Origin: a virus
Taxonomy: Duplodnaviria > Heunggongvirae > Uroviricota > Caudoviricetes
Virus record (IMG/VR): IMGVR_UViG_2695420632_000003
Coordinates: 1-20,169 of that record
DNA: 20,169 nucleotides
Direction: 5' to 3' (one strand)
Shown: in pieces, positions 3,435 through 15,855 of the stretch
Layout: each line of letters opens with the position of its first letter
Position numbering within the stretch: position 1 is the first letter of the stretch
The notes under the pieces: generated by a model
Database searches by the model: none
Told to the model about the DNA's origin: nothing
Seen by the model: the letters and a program-made list of their open reading frames with translations, nothing else
Made by a program: the position numbers and the translations under genes

Positions 3435-3738
3435 AATTAAAGAAATACCAGTAGTACGTGATGAATATGGCTGCTGGACGCATCCTGAATATGAAAAATT
3501 CTGTGACGGTCGGGAATATATTTCAACGGAAGAGTTTAACGCCTGGATGGAGGAAAATAATCTTCAATACGTCCTCTGCTTCAGAGATGAAGGATGTGCT
3601 GACCTTGATGCGTGTGATGCTGATATTTCTGCATGGGAACCGGAACGACCAGAGGGCAATGGATGGTTTATTGGTTCAATACATGACACCGAAGATGGCC
3701 CGGTTTGTGTATGGCTGAGAAATAAGGCCGAAGCATAA
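3427..3738 (+). CDS. Hypothetical phage protein (Cys/acidic-rich)
   Basis: ATG 3427 with GGGAGAACAG upstream, overlaps the previous gene end by 8 nt (translational coupling); 103 aa. Confidence 0.45.
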   Translation: MNEIKEIPVVRDEYGCWTHPEYEKFCDGREYISTEEFNAWMEENNLQYVLCFRDEGCADLDACDADISAWEPERPEGNGWFIGSIHDTEDGPVCVWLRNKAEA

Positions 3739-3866
3739 AGGCTATAAACCGACTAACAACTAAATACCGAAGATTTAAATCAGAAACGATTTTTATTAAA
3801 TCCTTAACCGGAGGGATTCCTGCACCCTCAGAACATCAGGAGGCCGTCCGAAAGGGCGGTAGTGAA

Positions 3867-4049
3867 ATGCGAAAATTCAAAATAATTATTGAAACGGGAA
3901 TAGCCGGTGGAGATTTCGAGGATGAATTCGAAGTGGATGATGATGCAACACCAGATGAAATACAGGATGAAGCTAAAGATATTTTCTTTAACTACTGCAA
4001 TTACTCATACCACGAAATAAAAGACGAAGAGGAAGAACAAAATGGCTGA
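3867..4049 (+). CDS. Hypothetical small acidic protein
   Basis: 60-aa ORF, highly acidic C-terminus; stop overlaps the next gene start. Confidence 0.4.
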   Translation: MRKFKIIIETGIAGGDFEDEFEVDDDATPDEIQDEAKDIFFNYCNYSYHEIKDEEEEQNG

Positions 4050-4218
4050 TTTTGGTTCAACTAAATATAACGCCAGTTTTGAAGAATGGCATGAACTGTT
4101 AATGGATTATGCAGAGTTACGCGGTGGAAGTGCCGCTGATGCTGAAGCATGGCGTGATGATTATGAAGCAGGGAAAACACCGGTCGAAGCATATTGTGAT
4201 GAGTGGGGCGATGAATGA
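4042..4218 (+). CDS. Hypothetical small protein (58 aa), not in supplied ORF track (<60 aa)
   Basis: Hand translation: MADFGSTKYNASFEEWHELLMDYAELRGGSAADAEAWRDDYEAGKTPVEAYCDEWGDE; start overlaps the upstream stop (ATGGCTGA) and stop overlaps the next start (ATGA): consistent with a coupled gene chain. Confidence 0.4.
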   Translation: MADFGSTKYNASFEEWHELLMDYAELRGGSAADAEAWRDDYEAGKTPVEAYCDEWGDE

Positions 4219-4574
4219 GCGAGATTAATTATCAGGAAGGGCATGAAAAGGCAGGGCAGGCAAAACCAGTGGCATGGCGATATCGCTACGTGAAAAAAGG
4301 CGTTACAGACTTTCAGGGGAAGCAGTGGGTTGGTGACTGGAAATATGTACCGACAAAAGAGGATTGCAACGACAGACCGAACTATGAAATTCAGGCGTTA
4401 TTCACTGCCCCGCCTGTGCCACTGACACCAGAAGGATTGATTAAAGCAGTGCGTTTCTATGAACAGGTAAAGCGTGAGAATCCGCCAGTCGAAACCGGAG
4501 CATGGAAAGACGCTGTTGACTGGGTGCTCAAAGAGGCTTGCCAGTCTGTAAACATTGGCATCAAAGGAGAGTGA
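4215..4574 (+). CDS. Hypothetical phage protein
   Basis: 119-aa ORF in the coupled gene chain; ends ...GIKGE followed by the repeated junction AAAGGAGAGTGA. Confidence 0.5.
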   Translation: MSEINYQEGHEKAGQAKPVAWRYRYVKKGVTDFQGKQWVGDWKYVPTKEDCNDRPNYEIQALFTAPPVPLTPEGLIKAVRFYEQVKRENPPVETGAWKDAVDWVLKEACQSVNIGIKGE

Positions 4575-4576
4575 GA

Positions 4577-5068
4577 ATGCAAATTTCACCGGTTACTCTT
4601 CGTGTTGCGAAGGCGTTTATATCCAGACATCACCGACACAATAAACCCCCGGTGGGGCATAAATTCAGCATTGGTCTGAGAAATGATGCCGGAGAATTGA
4701 TAGGTGTGGCGACAGCCGGTAGACCTGTTGCACGACATTTGGACGATGGATTAACGCTTGAAGTAAATCGCACATGTACCACAGGAGAACGCAACGCTAA
4801 CAGCGCGCTTTATGGTGCTGTCTGGCGGGCAGCAAAGGCTATGGGTTATCAACGTTGTATTACGTACACCCAGGCAGATGAATCAGGAGCATCTCTCCGC
4901 GCAGCTGGTTTTGTTCGTGTGAAAGAGCTTCCTCCAAGAAAAAGCTGGGCGGAATCAAGCGTCGCCCTGCGGAGTAAACGCGATCCGGTCGGAAACGGTG
5001 GTGTTCCTCGTGTGCTCTGGGAAATCAGGAGAATGAGTACCACTGGCATTCGCATCAAAGGAGAGTGA
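4577..5068 (+). CDS. Hypothetical phage protein; possible acyltransferase-like fold (weak inference)
   Basis: ATG 4577 with AAAGGAGAG SD (ORF track frame extends to 4538). 163 aa; bracketed by identical 17-bp junction sequences (4558-4574 and 5052-5068). Fold assignment is only an impression from the sequence pattern and is not supported by a canonical GNAT motif. Confidence 0.5.
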   Translation: MQISPVTLRVAKAFISRHHRHNKPPVGHKFSIGLRNDAGELIGVATAGRPVARHLDDGLTLEVNRTCTTGERNANSALYGAVWRAAKAMGYQRCITYTQADESGASLRAAGFVRVKELPPRKSWAESSVALRSKRDPVGNGGVPRVLWEIRRMSTTGIRIKGE

Positions 5069-5343: not shown

Positions 5344-6246
5344 ATGACCACTATTACCAAAGAACGTATTGAATTGTTCATTAAAAATCCGCTTGAAAAC
5401 GGGCTTACCCGTGGTGAACAAATGGAACTGGCACGGATTGCGCTGGCATCGCTGGAAGCAGATCCAGTTAAACGAGTTAACTCAGATCAGATGCGCCGAG
5501 TCTGCTTAGAAGCTAATCGCCATTTAGATAAATATGACGCGATGGCGAAAGAGGTAAATAAGTTGCTTGGACGCATCGCCCCGCCAGCGCCGGTAGTGCC
5601 GGAAGAAGCAACTCCGGAAAACGTAGAAATGCTCTCTGGCTATGTTTCCACGTACAAATTAACCGATAGCGAGCGCGATATTGCTGCCGAAATATGGAAC
5701 GCCTGCCGCACCGCCATGCTTCAGTCCGGAAACTTTCGGGAAAGCAAGAATTCGTCAACCAATAATTTTCGGGAAATCCCGGAAGCGTCAACCAGCTCTC
5801 CGGTAACTCCGGCTCTTCTGCCTGGTGGTTTCACCATTGAGGAGGCGAAGGAATTACATGAAGACCTGGTACGCAGCCACATAAGCAAGGCCTTAAGTGG
5901 CGAAAAGATGAAAAAGAAAGATCGCGATGCTGATTTGCGCTGGATTCATGGCGTTATAGTTCAGGCAGCGTGGTTTGTAAAAGCATCACTGGAGCAGAAT
6001 GCACTATCGGGCAACTCTCCGGCAACTCCGGATGGTTGGATAAGCTGTAGTGAGCGAATGCCGAATACCAAAACAGCCGTTCTTGTTGCCGTGGAGTTTG
6101 ACAGGAAAGGTGACTGGCGAATGAAATGGGCTACTTACATCCCCGGGCATCCTGACGCTAATGATGGGTGGATAATTCCTGGTGCGTCGTGGAAACCGTC
6201 ACACTGGATGCCGCTACCAGAACCGCCGCAGGAGGTGAATCAATGA
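5344..6246 (+). CDS. Phage protein with C-terminal DUF551-like domain
   Basis: 300-aa ORF; C-terminus ...DGWIIPGASWKPSHWMPLPEPP matches my recollection of the DUF551 signature (W...HWMPLPEPP); Pro-rich linker in the middle. Confidence 0.55.
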   Translation: MTTITKERIELFIKNPLENGLTRGEQMELARIALASLEADPVKRVNSDQMRRVCLEANRHLDKYDAMAKEVNKLLGRIAPPAPVVPEEATPENVEMLSGYVSTYKLTDSERDIAAEIWNACRTAMLQSGNFRESKNSSTNNFREIPEASTSSPVTPALLPGGFTIEEAKELHEDLVRSHISKALSGEKMKKKDRDADLRWIHGVIVQAAWFVKASLEQNALSGNSPATPDGWISCSERMPNTKTAVLVAVEFDRKGDWRMKWATYIPGHPDANDGWIIPGASWKPSHWMPLPEPPQEVNQ

Positions 6247-6326
6247 GCTGGCCTGAAGCATTAACAACGGTAGGAATTGCGATGGCGGTGGCGCTGGTGG
6301 TGTATTCGATTTGCCGCTGGGGATAA
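6243..6326 (+). CDS. Small hydrophobic peptide (27 aa, single predicted TM)
   Basis: ATG overlaps the upstream stop (ATGA) and is preceded by a near-perfect SD AGGAGGTGA; translation MSWPEALTTVGIAMAVALVVYSICRWG. Confidence 0.35.
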   Translation: MSWPEALTTVGIAMAVALVVYSICRWG

Positions 6327-6537
6327 AAACGGTTTGCGGGAAAAGGAGAGTTAAGTAGAATTGCAGCGGGTGCTTGAGGCTATCTGTCTCAGGCATGAAC
6401 ACCAAAAGGCAGATAGAGAAAAGCCCCAGTTAACATTACGCGTCCGGCAAGACGCTTAACATTAATCTGAGGCCATATCTATGCTCTACACACGTAGGTT
6501 AGCCTCTTACGTGCCGAAAGGCAAGGAGAAGCAGGCT

Positions 6538-6693
6538 ATGAAGCAGCAAAAGGCGATGCTAATCGCCCTGATCGTCATCTGTTTAACCGTCATTGTGACG
6601 GCACTGGTAACGAGGAAAGACCTCTGCGAGGTACGAATCCGAACCGGCCAGACGGAGGTCGCTGTCTTCACAGCTTACGAACCTGAGGAGTAA
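6538..6693 (+). CDS. hok: Hok/Gef family type I toxin (HokD/RelF-like, 51 aa)
   Basis: Translation MKQQKAMLIALIVICLTVIVTALVTRKDLCEVRIRTGQTEVAVFTAYEPEE is a Hok-family membrane toxin as I recall it; SD AAGGAGA upstream; an in-frame upstream extension (6481) occupies the mok-like position; intrinsic terminator follows. Confidence 0.85.
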   Translation: MKQQKAMLIALIVICLTVIVTALVTRKDLCEVRIRTGQTEVAVFTAYEPEE

Positions 6694-6761
6694 GAGACCA
6701 GGCGGGGGAGAATCCCTCGCCACCTCTGATGTGTCAGGCATCCTCAACGCACCCGCACTTA

Positions 6762-8195: not shown

Positions 8196-8576
8196 ATGAC
8201 TGAACGCATAGAATTTGTTTTGCCTTACCCGCCAACGGTGAACACTTACTGGCGACGCCGTGGCAGCACATATTTTATCTCGGAGGAGGGAAAGCGTTAT
8301 CGCCGGGCTGTGGCGCTTATTGTTCGCCAGCAGCGGCTGAAATTAAGCCTGTCCGGAAGGCTGGCGATAAAGGTGATTGCAGAGCCACCGGATAAGCGTC
8401 GTCGCGACCTGGACAATATCCTGAAAGCACCGCTGGATGCGCTGACGCATGCGGGAGTGTTAATGGACGATGAGCAGTTTGATGAAATCAATATCGTTCG
8501 TGGTCAGCCAGTATCTGGTGGACGTATGGGGGTGAAGATTTACCCCATAATGCATGAAGAGCAGGTCAAAAAATGA
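8196..8576 (+). CDS. rusA: RusA-family Holliday junction resolvase
   Basis: Translation contains DKRRRDLDNILKAPLDALTHAGVLMDDEQ, matching the RusA catalytic region (DxRRRDLDN); typical nin-region position just upstream of Q. Confidence 0.85.
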   Translation: MTERIEFVLPYPPTVNTYWRRRGSTYFISEEGKRYRRAVALIVRQQRLKLSLSGRLAIKVIAEPPDKRRRDLDNILKAPLDALTHAGVLMDDEQFDEINIVRGQPVSGGRMGVKIYPIMHEEQVKK

Positions 8577-9394
8577 AACTGGAAGATTTACCGAAATACT
8601 ACTCCCCAAAATCCCCTGGCCTGACCGATGCATCGGCCTCAACGTCAAAAGATGCGCTGAGTATCACTGATGTGATGGCCGCGCAGGGCATGACACAGAA
8701 TCGGGCTGAGATGGGGTTTTCTGCGTTCCTGGGGAAAATGGGCATCAGTATGAATGACAGGGCGCGGGCAACAGAATTACTGGCAGATTATGCACTCAGT
8801 CGGTGCGATCGTGTGGCGGCGTTGAGAAAACTTCCGGCAGAAATAAAACCGGTAGTGATGCGCATTATGGCTTCGTATGCGTTTGAAGATTATGCCCGTA
8901 GCGCGGCGAGCAAAAAACAGTGCCCCTGCTGTCACGGAAAAAAATTTATTGAAAGCGAGGTTTTTACAAACAAGATCCAGTATCCGGATGGTAAGCCACC
9001 AGTGTGGGCAAAGTGCACAAAAGGCGTGTATCCGTCTTACTGGGAAGAATGGAAAAAAGTCAGGGAGGTGGTAAAAGTTGCCTGTCCGGAGTGTGGCGGA
9101 AAGGGTGAGGTTTCCACCGCCTGTAAGGATTGCCGTGGGCGTGGTGTCGCCATTCATCGTGAAGAGTCGGTAAAACGTGGTATGCCTGTTATCAGAGATT
9201 GCCAGCGTTGTGGTGGTCGTGGCTGTGAAAGGCTGCCATCAACGGAGGCATTTAATGCCATATGCAAAGTGACGAGTGCTATCACGCTTGATACGTGGAA
9301 AAAATCAGTGAAACGCTTTTACGATACGTTGGTGGTTCGGTTTGACATTGAAGAGGCATGGGCGGAGCGGCAGTTAAAGAGGGTAACGCGATAG
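8573..9394 (+). CDS. Late-gene antiterminator Q-like protein with four CxxCxGxG zinc-finger-like repeats
   Basis: Position between rusA and a promoter/terminator pair; start overlaps the rusA stop (ATGA); repeats CPCCHGKK, CPECGGKG, CKDCRGRG, CQRCGGRG. Functional call is mainly by synteny. Confidence 0.6.
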   Translation: MKLEDLPKYYSPKSPGLTDASASTSKDALSITDVMAAQGMTQNRAEMGFSAFLGKMGISMNDRARATELLADYALSRCDRVAALRKLPAEIKPVVMRIMASYAFEDYARSAASKKQCPCCHGKKFIESEVFTNKIQYPDGKPPVWAKCTKGVYPSYWEEWKKVREVVKVACPECGGKGEVSTACKDCRGRGVAIHREESVKRGMPVIRDCQRCGGRGCERLPSTEAFNAICKVTSAITLDTWKKSVKRFYDTLVVRFDIEEAWAERQLKRVTR

Positions 9395-9968: not shown

Positions 9969-11018
9969 ATGCTTAATACTGTAAAAATATCCAGTTGTGA
10001 GTTAATCAACGCCGACTGCCTGGAATTTATCCGGTCGTTACCCGAAAATTCTGTTGACCTGATAGTCACGGACCCGCCGTACTTTAAAGTGAAGCCTGAG
10101 GGCTGGGATAACCAGTGGAAGGGCGACGATGATTACCTGAAGTGGCTGGACCAGTGTCTGGCGCAGTTCTGGCGGGTGCTGAAACCTGTCGGAAGTCTTT
10201 ACCTGTTCTGTGGTCATCGCCTGGCATCTGATATCGAAATCATGATGCGTGAACGCTTCAGTGTGCTGAACCATATTATCTGGGCGAAGCCGTCCGGACG
10301 CTGGAACGGATGCAACAAGGAAAGCCTGCGGGCGTATTTCCCCGCCACAGAGCGCATTCTGTTCGCGGAACATTATCAGGGGCCGTATCGTCCGAAAGAT
10401 GCCGGGTATGCGGCGAAGGGCAGTGCACTGAAACAGCATGTGATGGCCCCGCTGATTTCTTACTTTCGTGATGCGCGCGCGGCCCTGGGGATAACGGCAA
10501 AACAGATTGCAGATGCCACAGGAAAGAAAAACATGGTGTCGCACTGGTTCAGTGCCAGTCAGTGGCAGCTACCGAACGAAAGCGATTATCTGAAATTACA
10601 GTCGCTGTTTGCCCGGGTGGCAGAAGAGAAACATCAGCGCGGTGAACTGGAAAAGCCCCACCACCAGCTGGTGGATACGTATACGTCACTGAACCGGCAG
10701 TATGTGGAGCTGCAGAGTGAATATAAGCATCTGCGGCGGTATTTTGGTGTGACGGCGCAGGTGCCGTACACGGATGTGTGGACACATAAACCGGTGCAGT
10801 TCTATCCCGGGAAACATCCGTGCGAAAAACCGGCAGAAATGCTGCAGCAGATAATCAGCGCAAGCAGTCGTCCGGGAGACCAGGTTGCAGATTTTTTTAT
10901 GGGCTCAGGTTCAACGGTAAAAGCGGCACTGGCGCTCGGGCGTCGTGCGATTGGCGTTGAACTGGAGACCGGACGTTTTGAGCAGACAGTCAGGGAAGTT
11001 CAGGATTTAATCGTTTGA
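9969..11018 (+). CDS. DNA methyltransferase, beta-class amino-MTase (N6-adenine or N4-cytosine), apparently orphan
   Basis: Catalytic DPPY motif near the N-terminus (LIVTDPPYF) and SAM-binding FxGxG near the C-terminus (DFFMGSGST): motif order IV then I. No adjacent restriction endonuclease candidate. Confidence 0.8.
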   Translation: MLNTVKISSCELINADCLEFIRSLPENSVDLIVTDPPYFKVKPEGWDNQWKGDDDYLKWLDQCLAQFWRVLKPVGSLYLFCGHRLASDIEIMMRERFSVLNHIIWAKPSGRWNGCNKESLRAYFPATERILFAEHYQGPYRPKDAGYAAKGSALKQHVMAPLISYFRDARAALGITAKQIADATGKKNMVSHWFSASQWQLPNESDYLKLQSLFARVAEEKHQRGELEKPHHQLVDTYTSLNRQYVELQSEYKHLRRYFGVTAQVPYTDVWTHKPVQFYPGKHPCEKPAEMLQQIISASSRPGDQVADFFMGSGSTVKAALALGRRAIGVELETGRFEQTVREVQDLIV

Positions 11019-11067
11019 AACGGATGAGATTGCAGAATTAATTACGCACCATTATTATTCTGCTTCC

Positions 11068-11143
11068 GGCCCTTTAGCTCAGTGGTGAGAGCGAGCGACT
11101 CATAATCGCCAGGTCGCTGGTTCAAATCCAGCAAGGGCCACCA
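11068..11143 (+). tRNA. ileZ: tRNA with CAT anticodon, ileX/ileZ-like (tRNA-Ile2, lysidine type) rather than tRNA-Met
   Basis: 76 nt, cloverleaf folded by hand: acceptor GGCCCTT/AAGGGCC, anticodon loop CTCATAA, T-loop TTCAAAT, encoded CCA; close to E. coli ileX as I recall it. Confidence 0.8.
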
Positions 11144-11150
11144 TCACATA

Positions 11151-11227
11151 CCGCCATTAGCTCATCGGGATAGAGCGCCAGCCTTCGAAGCTGGCTGCGC
11201 GGGGTTCAAGTCCCCGATGGCGGTCCA
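11151..11227 (+). tRNA. argN: tRNA-Arg (anticodon TCG)
   Basis: 77 nt; acceptor CCGCCAT/ATGGCGG, D-stem GCTC/GAGC, anticodon loop CTTCGAA, T-arm CGGGG-TTCAAGT-CCCCG, encoded CCA. Confidence 0.75.
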
Positions 11228-11240
11228 TTATCTGCATCAT

Positions 11241-11317
11241 GCGTTGTTAGCTCAGCCGGACAGAGCAATTGCCTTCTAAGCAATCGGTCACTGGTTCGAA
11301 TCCAGTACAGCGCGCCA
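11241..11317 (+). tRNA. argO: tRNA-Arg (anticodon TCT, decodes AGA/AGG)
   Basis: 77 nt; acceptor GCGTTGT/ACAGCGC, anticodon loop CTTCTAA, T-arm ACTGG-TTCGAAT-CCAGT, encoded CCA. Confidence 0.8.
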
Positions 11318-11424
11318 TATTCATTCTTCCAGATTCCTTTCGGCAGAGCCTTATACTGAAATATACCTGGCTCAGGATATTGTTGAAAATATTATATGTT
11401 TGTCAAAAATAAAAGTTCTGTTAA

Positions 11425-11781
11425 GTGTTGATTGAGTGTTTGTTATACGGTCTAATGGTTTTTTCAGCATTAAATATTTATCATTCATATGGTGTGGGTA
11501 GAGTGAATATTGATGAGGCGTCGGGGTGTTTCATCCTTAGGCAGCGTATTGATATAGTCAATGCAGAACGAGCAAAGGCCTTCAGCCGTTTGACAGTTTT
11601 GTTCTGTACTCCTGATCGTCTTTCGGGAAGAGACGTTATTATTCTGAATAGTGATGCTATACAGAGGGTTTGCGATGAGTTCATGGTGGCTAATTCAGAA
11701 TTATTTGCTCTTGTTCAGGAGTACAACAGAATAGCCAGGACCTGTGGTATGGATGAACTTCGGATTACTCATCTGGGGTAG
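11425..11781 (+). CDS. Uncharacterized cargo ORF in the stx-equivalent slot (93-118 aa depending on start)
   Basis: Only long + ORF in the AT-rich segment; frame opens at GTG 11425; alternative GTG 11503 has a GGTAGAG SD-like sequence. Rich in AGA/AGG/ATA codons. No recognisable motif. Confidence 0.4.
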   Translation: MLIECLLYGLMVFSALNIYHSYGVGRVNIDEASGCFILRQRIDIVNAERAKAFSRLTVLFCTPDRLSGRDVIILNSDAIQRVCDEFMVANSELFALVQEYNRIARTCGMDELRITHLG

Positions 11782-12172
11782 ATACATATCTGGATTATCA
11801 CCGGTTACGGTAAAAAGTGATTGCTTACTGTTTTTGTGAATGGCATTGCAGCAGCCGGATAATGTCAGTGCTGGCTGACGGTGTGCTGGTGGCGGGTGTG
11901 GTGGTTGCTGCTTTCCCGTTGCTGAAAAAGAAAACGCCAGACTGTTAGCCGGGTATCAGTTAGCGGGAGAAATTTTTAAATACTTCACAATTCAGGCGGT
12001 TGACTGTTGTCTGGTTTGCGGGGAGTTTGTTAAAAGAAACTGGCATGGTGAATCCCCCTGTGCGGAGGGGCAATCAGCGAGTAGGTATATGGGATAATCG
12101 CGGATTCAGGTGCTGGTACTGAATTCACCGGGAGGCACCCGGCACCATGCAATGGCACATAGCGCCACTCTC

Positions 12173-12200
12173 CAGCCCCTCTCCGGAGGGGCTGTTTATA
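12173..12200 (+). terminator. Strong intrinsic terminator (+ strand) inside the cargo segment
   Basis: 9-bp GC-rich stem CAGCCCCTC / GAGGGGCTG with UCCG tetraloop, followed by TTTATATTGATTTT. Confidence 0.6.
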
Positions 12201-12228
12201 TTGATTTTGTCAGATGTGAGTAAACTCC

Positions 12229-12564
12229 TTATGGACTTTGTTGTTTTAGCCCATAAGGACATATTTGCAGAGTGCAACGGTTATTAAAGCATTCATTCAA
12301 TACGTTATCTGTATTTGTAGGGCATTCCTGGCTGTTTTTGATTAAATTCCAGAATGTTTTATTGAATGGTACTACGTTGTAAATGGTTACAGGCAGCACT
12401 TTGTTATTGAGCATGATGCCTGTGTGAGTCAGTGTAAATATACTTTCAGGAGGTAAGAAAGCATCCGATTGATACCAGATTATTAATTTTATTTTACTCC
12501 ATATGACTGAAAAAGATATTCCGCATGATGGCTGGATAACTGTATCAATCACAATCCACTTCAT
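12229..12564 (-). CDS. Uncharacterized Cys-rich 111-aa cargo ORF, antisense to the phage late transcript
   Basis: Long ORF in ~35% GC (stop-rich) DNA; AAGGAA SD 5 nt before ATG 12564; sigma70-like promoter on the minus strand around 12610-12650 (TTTACA ... TATACT). Confidence 0.45.
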
Positions 12565-12809
12565 TTAGTTTCCTTGTTTATGCCTTGCTGGTGATGTTCT
12601 GAAAAGTATAAATGATATTTTTGATTGTAAACCATAGAGCAGAATTATTTTTCTGATGTTGTTTATTGTTTATTTAAATGCAGGGTGGTTTATATCTCGT
12701 CTTGTAGTTTATCCATGCATATCTGCTTGATGATGAGGTTTTTAATTAAGGTATGGTTTTGTGTTTTTTCTGTATTACATGTCAGGTATTTTAAAGAATC
12801 ATTTTTCAG

Positions 12810-14678
12810 ATGGTGGAAAGAACCATGGCATTTAAACACTATGATGTTGTCAGGGCGGCGTCGCCGTCAGATCTTGCGGAAAAGCTGACACATAAACTGA
12901 AAGAGGGCTGGCAGCCGTTTGGTAGTCCGGTGGCCATAACCCCTTATACCCTGATGCAGGCGATTGCAGCAGAAGGTGATGTGGTCGTCAGTGGTGCAAC
13001 TGAGCCGGAGTGGTACTACGTCATCGTACTGGCCGGGCAGTCCAATGCCATGGCTTACGGTGAAGGGCTTCCGCTTCCGGATTCATACGATGCGCCCCAT
13101 CCGCGCATTAAGCAACTGGCCCGTCGTAACACAGTGACTCCCGGTGGTGAAGTATGCGTATTTAACGACATCATTCCTGCTGACCATTGTCTGCATGATG
13201 TTCAGGATATGAGTACGATTAACCATCCCCGGGCTGACCTGAGCAAAGGGCAGTACGGCTGTGTCGGCCAGGGCTTACATATTGCCAAAAAACTGCTTCC
13301 GTATATCCCTAATAATGCGGGGATCCTGCTGGTACCATGCTGTCGTGGTGGTTCGGCATTCACCCAGGGCACGGAGGGGACATTCAGCGAGTCCACGGGG
13401 GCCAGTCAGGATTCGGCTCGCTGGGGAGTGGGTAAGCCGTTATATCAGGATCTGCTTTTCCGCACGAAGGCAGCATTGCAGAAAAACCCGAAAAACGTTT
13501 TGCTGGCGATATGCTGGATGCAGGGGGAATTCGATATGACGAATGCCAGTTACGCCCAGCAGCCAGCAGCATTTCTTGCAATGGTACAGCAGTTCCGTGC
13601 TGACCTTGCCGGGCTGGCAGCGCAGTGTCACGGTGGAAGTCCGGCATCAGTCCCCTGGATTTGTGGCGACACGACATACGCGTGGAAACAAGAACACGGT
13701 ACGCAATATGAAGTGGTATATGGTGCATATAAAGGTAAAGAATCCCAGCAGATTTATTTTGTTCCCTTTATGACCGATGGTAGCGGAGTTAATACACCGA
13801 CAAACAACCCGTCAGAAGATCCTGATATTGCCGGGTCTGGTTATTACGGTTCGGCATCCCGAACGAACAAAAACTGGGTATCATCAAATCGCCCGACGCA
13901 TTTCAGCTCATGGGCGCGTCGTGGCATTATTCCCGATCGTATGGCAACTGCTATTCTGAACGTAGCCGGGCGCACCTCAGCCTTCATCAGTGGTAAGGCA
14001 CCGGAAATCAAACCCTCGCCCGGCGGCGACACGCCATCGGGTCCGTCTGCAGATACGTCCGTTCGCACAATCTCCCTGCTGCCGACAGCCGGAGAGGCTG
14101 CTGCGCAGGGCTGGACCATCACCGGCGGCAGTGTTGCGCTGGAAGATGGTGTGTTTAAGGTTACCAAGCAGAGCAATAAAACCTGGTCCCTGATGCATCC
14201 GGTGGATGACGCAGTCTCCCTGCTGACACGGGGTGGCAGACTGAGCTGTAAGTTTCGACTGTCAGGCGCACTGACCAACAACCAGTTCGGTCTGGGAATT
14301 TATCTGTATACCGATGTAGCGTTACCTGACGTCGTGGCGATGACCGGGACTGGTAACCCGTTCCTGATGTCGTTCTTCACCCAGACCACAGACGGCAAAC
14401 TGAATCTGATGCATCACAAGAAAGCCGGAAACACAAAGTTGGGCGAGTTCGGGAATTACAGTAACGACTGGCAGACGCTGGAGCTGGTGTTCACCGCCGG
14501 CAGTGCCACGGTTACTCCGAAACTGAATGGAGTGGCTGGCCCGGCATTCCAGGTTATAAAAGACAGTCTGACACTGGGACTGAATGCGCTGACGCTGACG
14601 GATATTACCAAAAATGCAGCGTATGGCGTTGAGATAGAAAGTCTGGTGCTGGAGATAAATGCACCGGCATCATCATAA
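12810..14678 (+). CDS. nanS: NanS-p-like sialate 9-O-acetylesterase (SGNH/SASA hydrolase domain, N-terminal DUF1737-like region)
   Basis: GQSN motif (VLAGQSNAMAYGEG) of SGNH esterases; size and location (downstream of the tRNA triplet, upstream of S) match the yjhS/nanS-like gene of Stx prophages. True start may be ATG 12825 (MAFKHYDV..., SD GGTGGA). Confidence 0.75.
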   Translation: MVERTMAFKHYDVVRAASPSDLAEKLTHKLKEGWQPFGSPVAITPYTLMQAIAAEGDVVVSGATEPEWYYVIVLAGQSNAMAYGEGLPLPDSYDAPHPRIKQLARRNTVTPGGEVCVFNDIIPADHCLHDVQDMSTINHPRADLSKGQYGCVGQGLHIAKKLLPYIPNNAGILLVPCCRGGSAFTQGTEGTFSESTGASQDSARWGVGKPLYQDLLFRTKAALQKNPKNVLLAICWMQGEFDMTNASYAQQPAAFLAMVQQFRADLAGLAAQCHGGSPASVPWICGDTTYAWKQEHGTQYEVVYGAYKGKESQQIYFVPFMTDGSGVNTPTNNPSEDPDIAGSGYYGSASRTNKNWVSSNRPTHFSSWARRGIIPDRMATAILNVAGRTSAFISGKAPEIKPSPGGDTPSGPSADTSVRTISLLPTAGEAAAQGWTITGGSVALEDGVFKVTKQSNKTWSLMHPVDDAVSLLTRGGRLSCKFRLSGALTNNQFGLGIYLYTDVALPDVVAMTGTGNPFLMSFFTQTTDGKLNLMHHKKAGNTKLGEFGNYSNDWQTLELVFTAGSATVTPKLNGVAGPAFQVIKDSLTLGLNALTLTDITKNAAYGVEIESLVLEINAPASS

Positions 14679-14761
14679 AAAGTGAGCCAGTCAAATGGAA
14701 GGTATCGTTAAACTCACCGGTAGTGTCAGTGGGTCGTCTGAGATGCCTGCATGAGTTATCA

Positions 14762-14793
14762 GAGCCATCAGTACTTAACTGGTGGCTTTTTTT
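14762..14793 (+). terminator. Intrinsic terminator between nanS-p and the holin gene
   Basis: 9-bp stem AGCCATCAG / CTGGTGGCT (one G-U pair), loop TACTTAA, followed by TTTTTTT. Confidence 0.5.
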
Positions 14794-14828
14794 ATTGTTG
14801 TCAGCTTCCGGATAACGGGAGACGGGGT

Positions 14829-15044
14829 ATGTACCAGATGGAAAAAATCACAACAGGTGTGTCATACACCACGTCAGCGGTGGGAACGGGCTACTGGTTC
14901 CTGCAGTTGCTGGACAGGGTTTCCCCGTCTCAGTGGGCGGCAATAGGCGTGCTGGGGAGTCTGCTGTTTGGGCTGCTGACATATCTGACTAACCTGTATT
15001 TCAAAATCAGAGAGGACCGGCGTAAGGCGGCGCGGGGAGAGTAA
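14829..15044 (+). CDS. S: Class II holin, S21-like pinholin (71 aa) with dual-start motif
   Basis: Translation [71 protein letters not shown]: two TM segments, Met1/Met4 dual start, charged C-terminus; partnered with a SAR endolysin downstream. The ORF track extension to 14751 runs through the terminator and is rejected. Confidence 0.8.
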
Positions 15045-15048
15045 AGCG

Positions 15049-15855
15049 ATGAAGAAAAAATACGAACTGGTTGTTAAAGGGATAAATAATTACCCGGATA
15101 AGATTACTGTTACTGTGGTACTGGAAATTGGTGGGTATCCGTCACTGTTGTTGCCAAATGTGGCGATTAGTCTTGACCGTACTGAAGGTGCCACGCTGGA
15201 GTTTTACGAAGCTGAGGCGAAAAAGCAGGCGAAGCAGTTTTTCATGGATGTTGCTGCCGGGTTATGTGAAGGGAACGAACCGTTGCCGGAAAAGCGCCCC
15301 ATAATTTTAGAGGCGCAGGATGTGTTGATAACCTACAAAGGAAAGCTACCGGGAAGAATTACTGGTTCTCTGAAGATGCCGCCGTCAACACTGCGGTCAG
15401 AAAAAGAGGCGTCTTGTCTGCAGTCTGAGTACTCCATTACGGTTAAAAGTGCCGGAGAGGAAGGAAATAAACGTTATTTTATTGCGTCTGCACCTGATAA
15501 AGATCAGGAATGGGAGTGTAACCGGCCATCCTTTGTTGTATACGGAGATGGCGGGAAAATAACCATCTCAGAAAATGGGAAATTAACACCGCCATCGCAC
15601 CAGCATAGTGAGGCGCTCATTGAATTTGCCATTGATTACCTGAAGAACAATAAAAAGCAGGGGCTGATGAAGCGCATTGGTCGTTGCATGGGATATCTGC
15701 AGGTAGCAGCTGAGATTGAAATGATGGCCAGTGGTGCTGACAATGATGCAGTTGTGCTGGAGGCTCTTCTGCGTGATTTTGATAATACGCCCTTTAAGAA
15801 AGCACCTGTTGACTGGATGCAGCCGGGGATGACTTATCTGAAAGGGCGTATATAA
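15049..15855 (+). CDS. Uncharacterized 268-aa soluble protein inserted between holin and endolysin
   Basis: GGGGAGAG SD, starts 4 nt after the holin stop (late-operon co-transcription); no TM segments or recognisable catalytic motifs. Confidence 0.5.
   Translation: MKKKYELVVKGINNYPDKITVTVVLEIGGYPSLLLPNVAISLDRTEGATLEFYEAEAKKQAKQFFMDVAAGLCEGNEPLPEKRPIILEAQDVLITYKGKLPGRITGSLKMPPSTLRSEKEASCLQSEYSITVKSAGEEGNKRYFIASAPDKDQEWECNRPSFVVYGDGGKITISENGKLTPPSHQHSEALIEFAIDYLKNNKKQGLMKRIGRCMGYLQVAAEIEMMASGADNDAVVLEALLRDFDNTPFKKAPVDWMQPGMTYLKGRI

Follow-up and report, generated by a model that had tools for sequence, protein, structure and literature searches.

Gene content of the slot

The DNA considered here is a 20,169-nucleotide stretch of a Caudoviricetes virus (IMG/VR record IMGVR_UViG_2695420632_000003, positions 1 to 20,169; hereafter the window), and within it the interval 11318-12809 (the slot), which lies between three tRNA genes and a sialate O-acetylesterase gene. 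The element is a lambdoid prophage of Escherichia coli O104:H4 without stx, the Shiga toxin (Stx) genes. Positions 11000-13000 are 100% identical to the chromosome of many O104:H4 isolates (2011C-3493, C227-11, HUSEC2011 and others), and 863 of 5426 complete E. coli genomes contain at least 80% of this segment. From left to right, the slot contains a conserved open reading frame (ORF) that we call ORF1, a shortened DUF3927/TciB-like gene, the small RNA (sRNA) gene STnc100 and, on the opposite strand, iraL, which encodes an anti-adaptor of RssB (Table 1).

Table 1. Features of the slot and its surroundings. Positions are those of the window; L001 and L006 are loci of the comparison set. PGAP, Prokaryotic Genome Annotation Pipeline; UTR, untranslated region; dN/dS, ratio of nonsynonymous to synonymous substitution rates.
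Feature	Position	Strand	Basis
Q antiterminator	8573-9394		PF03589
N6/N4 DNA methylase (DNA methyltransferase)	9969-11018		Domain scan, annotated O104:H4 locus
Three tRNA genes, left border of the slot	11068-11143, 11151-11227, 11241-11317	+	ARAGORN, Rfam tRNA, PGAP of the identical O104:H4 and CFT073 loci
ORF1, conserved 92-aa coding gene	11503-11781 (L001 12504-12782; L006 22740-23018)	+	dN/dS, phrog_2873, divergent copies
DUF3927/TciB-like small membrane-protein gene, 5'-truncated, 43 aa (PGAP)	11817-11948	+	Pfam, PHROG
STnc100 sRNA gene (PasD-related family) with intrinsic terminator	12014-12203	+	Rfam RF02076, terminator scan
iraL cassette: terminator hairpin, iraL, promoter and AT-rich upstream region (~670 bp, GC 0.351)	12152-12824		Homology breakpoints
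iraL, RssB anti-adaptor, IraM/IraL/RssC family, 111 aa	12229-12564	-	NCBIfam, RefSeq, tblastn, PDB match
iraL 5' UTR, Shine-Dalgarno AAGGAA and predicted sigma-70 promoter	12565-12631	-	Sequence reading
nanS-p-like sialate O-acetylesterase (DUF1737 + SASA + DUF6645), right border of the slot	12825-14678	+	Pfam, PGAP
P21-type holin, then further lysis genes	14751-15044		Domain scan

The gene order Q - methyltransferase - three tRNAs - cargo - nanS-p - lysis, read from the sequence in a preliminary description, was confirmed by domain scans and by the annotation of the O104:H4 locus, and the layout is that of a late region of the Stx-phage type. The slot is AT-rich between GC-rich flanks, as the same description had judged by eye. 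Its G+C is 39.7% against 53-54% in the flanks (as fractions 0.397 against 0.531 for 9969-11317 and 0.538 for 12810-14678). No other 1.5-kb part of the 20-kb window is poorer in G+C, with 0.13% of all 1492-bp intervals equally low and the minimum at 11351-12842. The dip is uneven: two AT-rich blocks (11318-11816 and 12204-12809, at 29-36% GC) surround a G+C-rich island at 11817-12203. The spacer between the tRNAs and ORF1 has a GC of 0.31, iraL 0.35 and the region upstream of iraL 0.29, against 0.55 for the STnc100 element.

The description had seen no stx-like ORF, and this holds: tblastn with StxA and StxB at E<=10 found nothing in the slot, and blastn against stxA and stxB returned chance matches of 11-21 bases only. 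Its statement that none of the proteins matches a known family does not hold, as IraL, DUF3927 and phrog_2873 were all matched and the RNA is STnc100. The convergent Cys-rich minus-strand ORF is there with its own ribosome-binding site and predicted promoter, and it is IraL (111/111). The 28-codon hydrophobic ORF exists as the 3' part of the DUF3927 gene, and what had been taken for a GC-rich structured leader with a strong terminator is an sRNA gene rather than a leader. The plus-strand ORF, placed at 11425/11503-11781, exists as well, with its conserved start at GTG 11503.

The minus-strand gene is iraL

The product of the minus-strand gene matches NCBIfam model NF007393 (IraM) at 162 bits against a cut-off of 121, with residues 1-110 covered, and phmmer aligns it with the IraM chain of PDB entry 8twd (E 9e-32). 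By tblastn it is identical at 111 of 111 residues to IraL of the uropathogenic E. coli strain CFT073 and 61.7% identical to K-12 IraM, and the O104:H4 ORF shares RefSeq accession WP_000871291.1 with the gene of the CFT073 potB prophage. The two coding sequences differ at two nucleotides, 12250 and 12394. The protein has five cysteines, four of them at residues 81, 92, 97 and 102.

In the survey of Hryckowian et al. (2014, mBio; PMC4045071), iraL was told apart from iraM by an identity of at least 95% to CFT073 iraL across the whole coding region. All iraL copies were at least 95% identical and distinct from iraM, and in every iraL strain the promoter and upstream regulatory region shared at least 96% identity with CFT073. 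The window copy lies within both ranges, with 111/111 amino acids and, upstream (12565-12809), 8 differences in 245 bp (96.7% identity) that leave the predicted promoter hexamers untouched.

An AAGGAA Shine-Dalgarno sequence precedes the ATG at 12564. The predicted sigma-70 promoter on the minus strand consists of a -35 element TTTACA (12631-12626), a 17-nt spacer and a -10 element TACTTT (12608-12603), and the transcription start site (TSS) would lie near 12596. This placement agrees with the published construct limits of '-100 to +33 relative to the TSS'; in CFT073 the TSS was mapped by 5' RACE (PMC4045071). Both hexamers are identical to those of CFT073, and the differences within 12565-12631 are solely at 12567, 12598 and 12625. 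Because IraL levels are higher in CFT073 without Fur (PMC7157518), the region upstream of iraL was searched for a Fur box. The best match, 12/19, was equalled by 1052 of 2000 shuffles, and no site rose above chance.

The experimental basis for the function of the gene is the identical CFT073 protein. In CFT073, where iraL is carried on the 'potB genomic island', IraL raises both the level and the stability of RpoS in logarithmic growth, and iraL moved to K-12 with its native promoter also raises RpoS; binding of IraL to RssB and RpoS stabilisation were documented in CFT073 and K-12 by immunoblot, two-hybrid assay and co-purification (PMC4045071). In the O104:H4 lysogen, iraL would be transcribed from its own sigma-70 promoter and ribosome-binding site, opposite to late transcription. 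IraL would bind the N-terminal receiver domain of the adaptor RssB, which then could not hand RpoS to ClpXP, and sigma-S would rise already in growing lysogens. Because it is antisense to the late operon, the gene is not one of the late genes that depend on induction; when late transcription runs antisense through it upon induction, iraL might instead be shut off. The minus-strand ORF is iraL, which by its sequence would be a lysogenic-conversion factor active in growing lysogens.

The closest counterpart of the whole slot is the potB prophage of CFT073, to which it is 98.6% identical without gaps (21 single-base differences over 1492 bp). The neighbourhood there is the same, in the order Q - tRNA Ile/Arg/Arg - ORF1 - DUF3927 - STnc100 - iraL - DUF1737 gene - holin. 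Differences are found in the host (O104:H4 against uropathogenic CFT073) and in two neighbouring genes: CFT073 has IS200C where the window has the methylase gene, upstream of the tRNAs, and its esterase gene is truncated, whereas that of the window is intact.

K-12 IraM (YcgW) belongs to the same family, with NF007393 above its cut-off, yet it is a paralogue and, unlike iraL in its late-region slot, its gene lies next to e14/icd. IraM is an RssB anti-adaptor induced by magnesium starvation through PhoPQ (PDB 8twd; PMC10844676). IraL is reported to work in unstressed logarithmic phase and to bind RssB's N-terminal domain only, whereas IraM binds both domains.

The segment 12204-12809 occurs in 1446 of the 5426 complete E. 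coli genomes (27%), where it is always annotated as anti-adapter protein IraM. A literature search on iraL in O104:H4 returned nothing relevant. For the O104:H4 outbreak lineage, in which both iraL and its promoter are intact, raised RpoS in logarithmic phase and greater stress tolerance are predicted, as in CFT073.

STnc100 as the anchor of the slot

To the left of iraL, the Rfam model RF02076 matches at 132.4 bits against a gathering score of 47, over model positions 1-206 of 206 and with the terminal hairpin included. The terminator scan places a 9-bp stem with 7 G-C pairs, followed by a T-rich tail, at 12173-12194, where it faces both STnc100 and the convergent iraL. The predicted fold has a minimum free energy of -74.6 kcal/mol (z -2.26) and is moderately stabler than shuffled sequences. 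Judged by the full-length model match, the element is STnc100.

STnc100 was found in every other slot variant examined except ETEC4075 (L003) and L008. In Shigella phage 75/02 Stx its place is between stxB and the esterase gene, in phage JLK-2012 it follows tciB, and mEp460_ev081 has it as well. Published positions are similar: STnc100 was placed 75 nt downstream of stx2 in E. coli that produce Shiga toxin (STEC), and was detected by reverse transcription quantitative PCR in outer membrane vesicles of two STEC strains (PMC12370729). It has been related to the PasD sRNAs, whose genes immediately precede that of the sialate esterase (Zhu, Shabalina and Storz, bioRxiv 10.64898/2026.05.13.724894), and this is the position that STnc100 has in the window. 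Because the same family recurs between cargo and esterase gene across phages and in the published positions, STnc100 is the conserved anchor of the slot. It lies directly 5' of the esterase gene, and in Stx phages it follows stxB directly.

Several further observations concern this sRNA. It is multiplied inside the slot of OkiPb01694 (NZ_AP042564.1, positions 1665-1877 and 3637-4616), with five copies, four of them head-to-tail, and two copies are found in phage vB_EcoS-640R1 (L015 3061-3254 and 3530-3718). PGAP annotates a partial pseudogene ('hypothetical protein') antisense to STnc100 at 12033-12158 on the minus strand (L001 13034-13159), which is probably a spurious call over the sRNA gene. 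In Shigella phage 75/02 Stx (L007), the anti-GcvB sRNA AgvB (RF02702; 56.6 bits, gathering score 56) occupies 3666-3725 on the minus strand, convergent to STnc100 and directly 3' of it, in the place and orientation that iraL has in the window.

A mosaic of exchangeable units

No phage record covers 80% of the slot. In its left half, up to 12151, it shares 98.7% identity with mEp460_ev081; in its right half, from 11985 onwards, it shares 96.4% with vB_EcoS-640R1 and relatives. Homology breaks at 11849, 12151-12159 and 12825-12832. The second breakpoint lies inside STnc100, just before the terminator, and the third at the start of the esterase gene. The limits of the iraL cassette are set at these two positions because the phages without iraL (mEp460_ev081, Shigella phage 75/02 and JLK-2012) cease to be homologous at 12151-12159 and are so again from 12825-12832. 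Past 12151, STnc100 of the window continues into cassette-specific sequence, and its terminator therefore belongs to the iraL cassette. In this way iraL can be recognised as a discrete cassette of ~670 bp between the body of STnc100 and the esterase gene.

The contents to the left of STnc100 vary among phages and include stxAB, tciA-tciB, ORF1 with a truncated tciB, or a TolA-like gene; a DUF1883 gene is another alternative slot content in other phages. To the right of STnc100, the minus strand carries AgvB in phage 75/02 and iraL in the window prophage. There are at least two independent swap positions, namely the stxAB position, held here by the ORF1 block, and the position convergent to STnc100. 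The preliminary description had proposed comparing related prophages to see whether the segment is a discrete swappable module: the AT-rich cargo is indeed discrete and swappable, but it is not one unit.

The stxAB slot of Stx phages (Shigella phage 75/02 Stx, 933W type) has the same order, Q - (tRNAs) - cargo - STnc100 - esterase - S/R/Rz, with its cargo on the late strand, as is ORF1 in the window. The window differs in having no stx genes or remnant, and in carrying the convergent iraL where phage 75/02 has the minus-strand AgvB.

The TolA-like gene of the Q-to-lysis cargo slot encodes 142 amino acids and was seen in mEp460_ev081 (L002 4998-5426) and in OkiPb01694 (L004 1129-1557). Its product could be a colicin- or phage-entry decoy.

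The DUF3927/TciB-like gene

The small gene between ORF1 and STnc100 matches Pfam PF13064 (E 1.3e-26; 92.7 bits, cut-off 25) and phrog_1470, 'TciB-like' (E 1.5e-11). DNA homology to tciB of phage JLK-2012 begins at 11849. The tciA-tciB systems of phage P1 and of lambdoid phages, JLK-2012 among them (PHROG 632/1470; Pfam TerB/DUF3927), share with the window the C-terminal hydrophobic segment of TciB, which over 28 amino acids is 96% identical between window and JLK-2012.

Full-length TciB, with 54 amino acids in JLK-2012 and 50 in Citrobacter, has an additional N-terminal hydrophobic segment, thus two in all, and its translation is coupled to that of a TerB-like tciA upstream. The window gene departs from this architecture. 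It retains the second hydrophobic segment only (SSRIMSVLADGVLVAGVVVAAFPLLKKK), the first being replaced by unrelated sequence, and tblastn found no tciA at the slot. The gene is most likely a 5'-truncated recombination remnant. Literature on 'TciB' and 'DUF3927' yielded no functional study, 'Tci' being an annotation name, and tciA turned up only as the name of a phage P1 or phage-plasmid gene.

ORF1, a coding gene missed by annotation

ORF1 can be read from GTG 11503 (92 aa) or from two in-frame upstream starts, ATG 11455 (108 aa) and GTG 11425 (118 aa). Two divergent copies, in ETEC4075 (L003) and OkiPb01694 (L004), have exactly 92 codons, share the GTG and are 60-64% identical at the amino acid level. 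Both have stop codons just upstream of that GTG, and ETEC4075 has an AGGAG there. The 108- and 118-aa forms, which would have a hydrophobic N-terminus, were rejected on account of these upstream stops. Against the divergent copies, dN/dS (Nei-Gojobori) is 0.24-0.29 in frame and 0.9-1.3 in the two shifted frames. Because dN/dS is low in its own frame only and the divergent copies hold ORFs of the same length, ORF1 is a real coding gene whose conserved product is the 92-aa form.

The product matches phrog_2873 (E 2.5e-58), its residues 1-92 aligning with profile positions 17-108. AlphaFold2 models a two-helix hairpin with a predicted local distance difference test score (pLDDT) of 85, with helices at residues 3-35 and 50-81; the conserved FSRLTVLFCTPDR motif lies where the first helix ends and in the turn that follows. 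The 92-aa form has no signal peptide or membrane segment. Pfam, NCBIfam and PADLOC gave no match, a relaxed Pfam scan of eight family members returned scattered matches only (E>0.01), and the family profile reached no better than E 0.48 against PDB sequences. Foldseek against PDB and BFVD found nothing at E<=0.001, only generic helical hairpins and coiled-coil folds.

Two large protein searches found the family, with lengths of 91-95 amino acids, only in E. coli/Shigella, in the Citrobacter freundii complex and in a single Salmonella serovar. A HMMER search of 1.84 billion proteins gave only about 15 true relatives; the hits to P0024, P0031 and P0033, all repetitive proteins, were dismissed as false. 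In a Citrobacter prophage, a 43%-identical homologue likewise occupies the Q-to-holin interval, with tciA-tciB and then the holins after it, and homologues also occur on E. coli Rep3 plasmids beside a fimbrial operon (L011-L013).

The segment 11318-11800 is present over at least 80% of its length in 1183 of the 5426 complete E. coli genomes, with 1312 having any match. PGAP leaves the stretch from the last tRNA to DUF3927 without a coding sequence, both in O104:H4 and CFT073 and in 36/36 of the near-identical (at least 98%) genomes listed. A gene under purifying selection is missed here by standard annotation, a systematic gap across more than 1100 complete E. coli genomes, and ORF1 deserves a coding-sequence call.

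Since ORF1 occupies the exact position of stxAB on the late strand, it would most likely be transcribed, like stx2, by Q-antiterminated read-through from PR'. As candidate roles, its small coiled-coil product could inhibit a host protein or act as a partner to the envelope module TerB/TciB. That ORF1 represents a new kind of late-expressed, host-directed factor is an unlikely proposition at present.

Interpretation of the slot and competing explanations

The slot is best read as a variable cargo (moron) slot, which would be a recombinational mosaic of four independent units: iraL, STnc100, the truncated tciB-like gene and ORF1. As an account of the whole, we hold this reading with high confidence. 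Most of the module is already known: iraL, STnc100 and DUF3927 are catalogued and iraL is functionally characterised, which leaves ORF1 as the sole slot gene without a function.

Some points weigh against this reading. The expression of iraL in O104:H4 is deduced solely from its identity with the CFT073 gene, and the three single-base differences in its 5' UTR and promoter region, all outside the hexamers, have to be set beside that identity. The literature consulted on STnc100 establishes no regulatory function or targets. ORF1 is without a functional lead, its fold matches being generic. Finally, the shortened DUF3927 ORF may still be functional, and the conservation of this form in many genomes may be due to selection or to recent spread.

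One alternative treats ORF1 and the DUF3927 gene as a functional pair, a cytoplasmic coiled-coil protein and a membrane peptide acting on the envelope or on lysis timing just upstream of the lysis cassette. Both families are found in the Q-to-holin interval of E. coli, with 36 nt between them, and likewise in that of the distant Citrobacter prophage, where tciA stands between the ORF1 homologue and DUF3927, which directly precedes the holins. However, each occurs without the other: ORF1 homologues lack DUF3927 in ETEC4075, OkiPb01694 and the Rep3 plasmids, and DUF3927 lacks ORF1 in JLK-2012. As the window copy of DUF3927 has also lost its first membrane segment, such a pairing appears improbable.

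Less probable again is the suggestion of the preliminary description that the slot holds an undescribed module for toxicity, superinfection exclusion or anti-phage defence which is expressed on induction. This would fit the location, which is that of stxAB in Stx phages, and ORF1, which is on the late strand and has no known function. Elsewhere the DUF3927/TciB family is paired with a TerB-like TciA labelled 'tellurite resistance', and TciB itself carries the annotation 'inhibition of cell division or resistance to colicin', both of which are labels only. However, the largest ORF of the slot, and the sole one with a promoter, is iraL, whose function is known and different (PMC4045071) and which is antisense to the late operon. 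At E<=0.01, neither ORF1 nor IraL nor the DUF3927 protein matched a family of PADLOC-DB 2.0. Of the tci pair, tciA is absent and the tciB-like gene truncated, and the 92-aa form of ORF1, a plain helical hairpin in the AlphaFold2 model, has neither signal peptide nor membrane segment. We consider this explanation very unlikely for the slot as a whole, and the idea survives as a weak possibility for ORF1 alone.

What the preliminary description had called host-directed cargo in a moron position is apt for the main gene, iraL, which is host-directed without being an undescribed toxin, exclusion or defence function expressed on induction. The family and Foldseek comparisons that it had proposed for both ORFs resolved iraL (NF007393, 8twd) and gave no informative match for ORF1.

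That the slot is the remnant of a decayed stx locus, with its ORFs as chance frames, has next to no probability: the position is that of stxAB, AT-rich sequence yields many short ORFs and PGAP does not call ORF1, but the proposal is refuted by the purifying selection on ORF1 in its own frame only, by an intact iraL identical to a functional gene and by the StxA/StxB protein and DNA searches.

Other features of the prophage

The tRNA triplet comprises a gene with a CAT anticodon, tRNA-Arg(TCG) and tRNA-Arg(TCT). The first, at 11068-11143, is called tRNA-Met by ARAGORN and tRNA-Ile by PGAP. The tRNA-Ile call corresponds to the ileZ type of Stx-phage tRNA triplets and would require lysidine modification. 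Besides these three tRNA genes, the prophage carries a gene for a tRNA-modification enzyme, epoxyqueuosine reductase QueH, at 5643-6308 (L001 6644-7309).

At the right border, the start of the esterase gene is 12825 according to PGAP, against 12810 in the preliminary description. Between the esterase stop codon and the holin gene, at about 14770-14800, a hairpin is followed by a T-run (…cagtacttaactggtggcttttttt…). The Rfam scan gave no match at this hairpin, which occupies the position reported for the PasA/PasC sRNAs in other prophages.

In the lysis region, an ORF of 268 amino acids at 15049-15855 has a DUF1327 match confined to its first 100 residues. PGAP annotates its first 336 nt alone, as an incomplete YdfR-family pseudogene, and the ORF may be the product of a fusion or rearrangement. 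A sok antisense RNA (RF01794, 117 bits) and a hokD toxin gene lie together in the early-right region, at 6368-6543 and 6546-6701.

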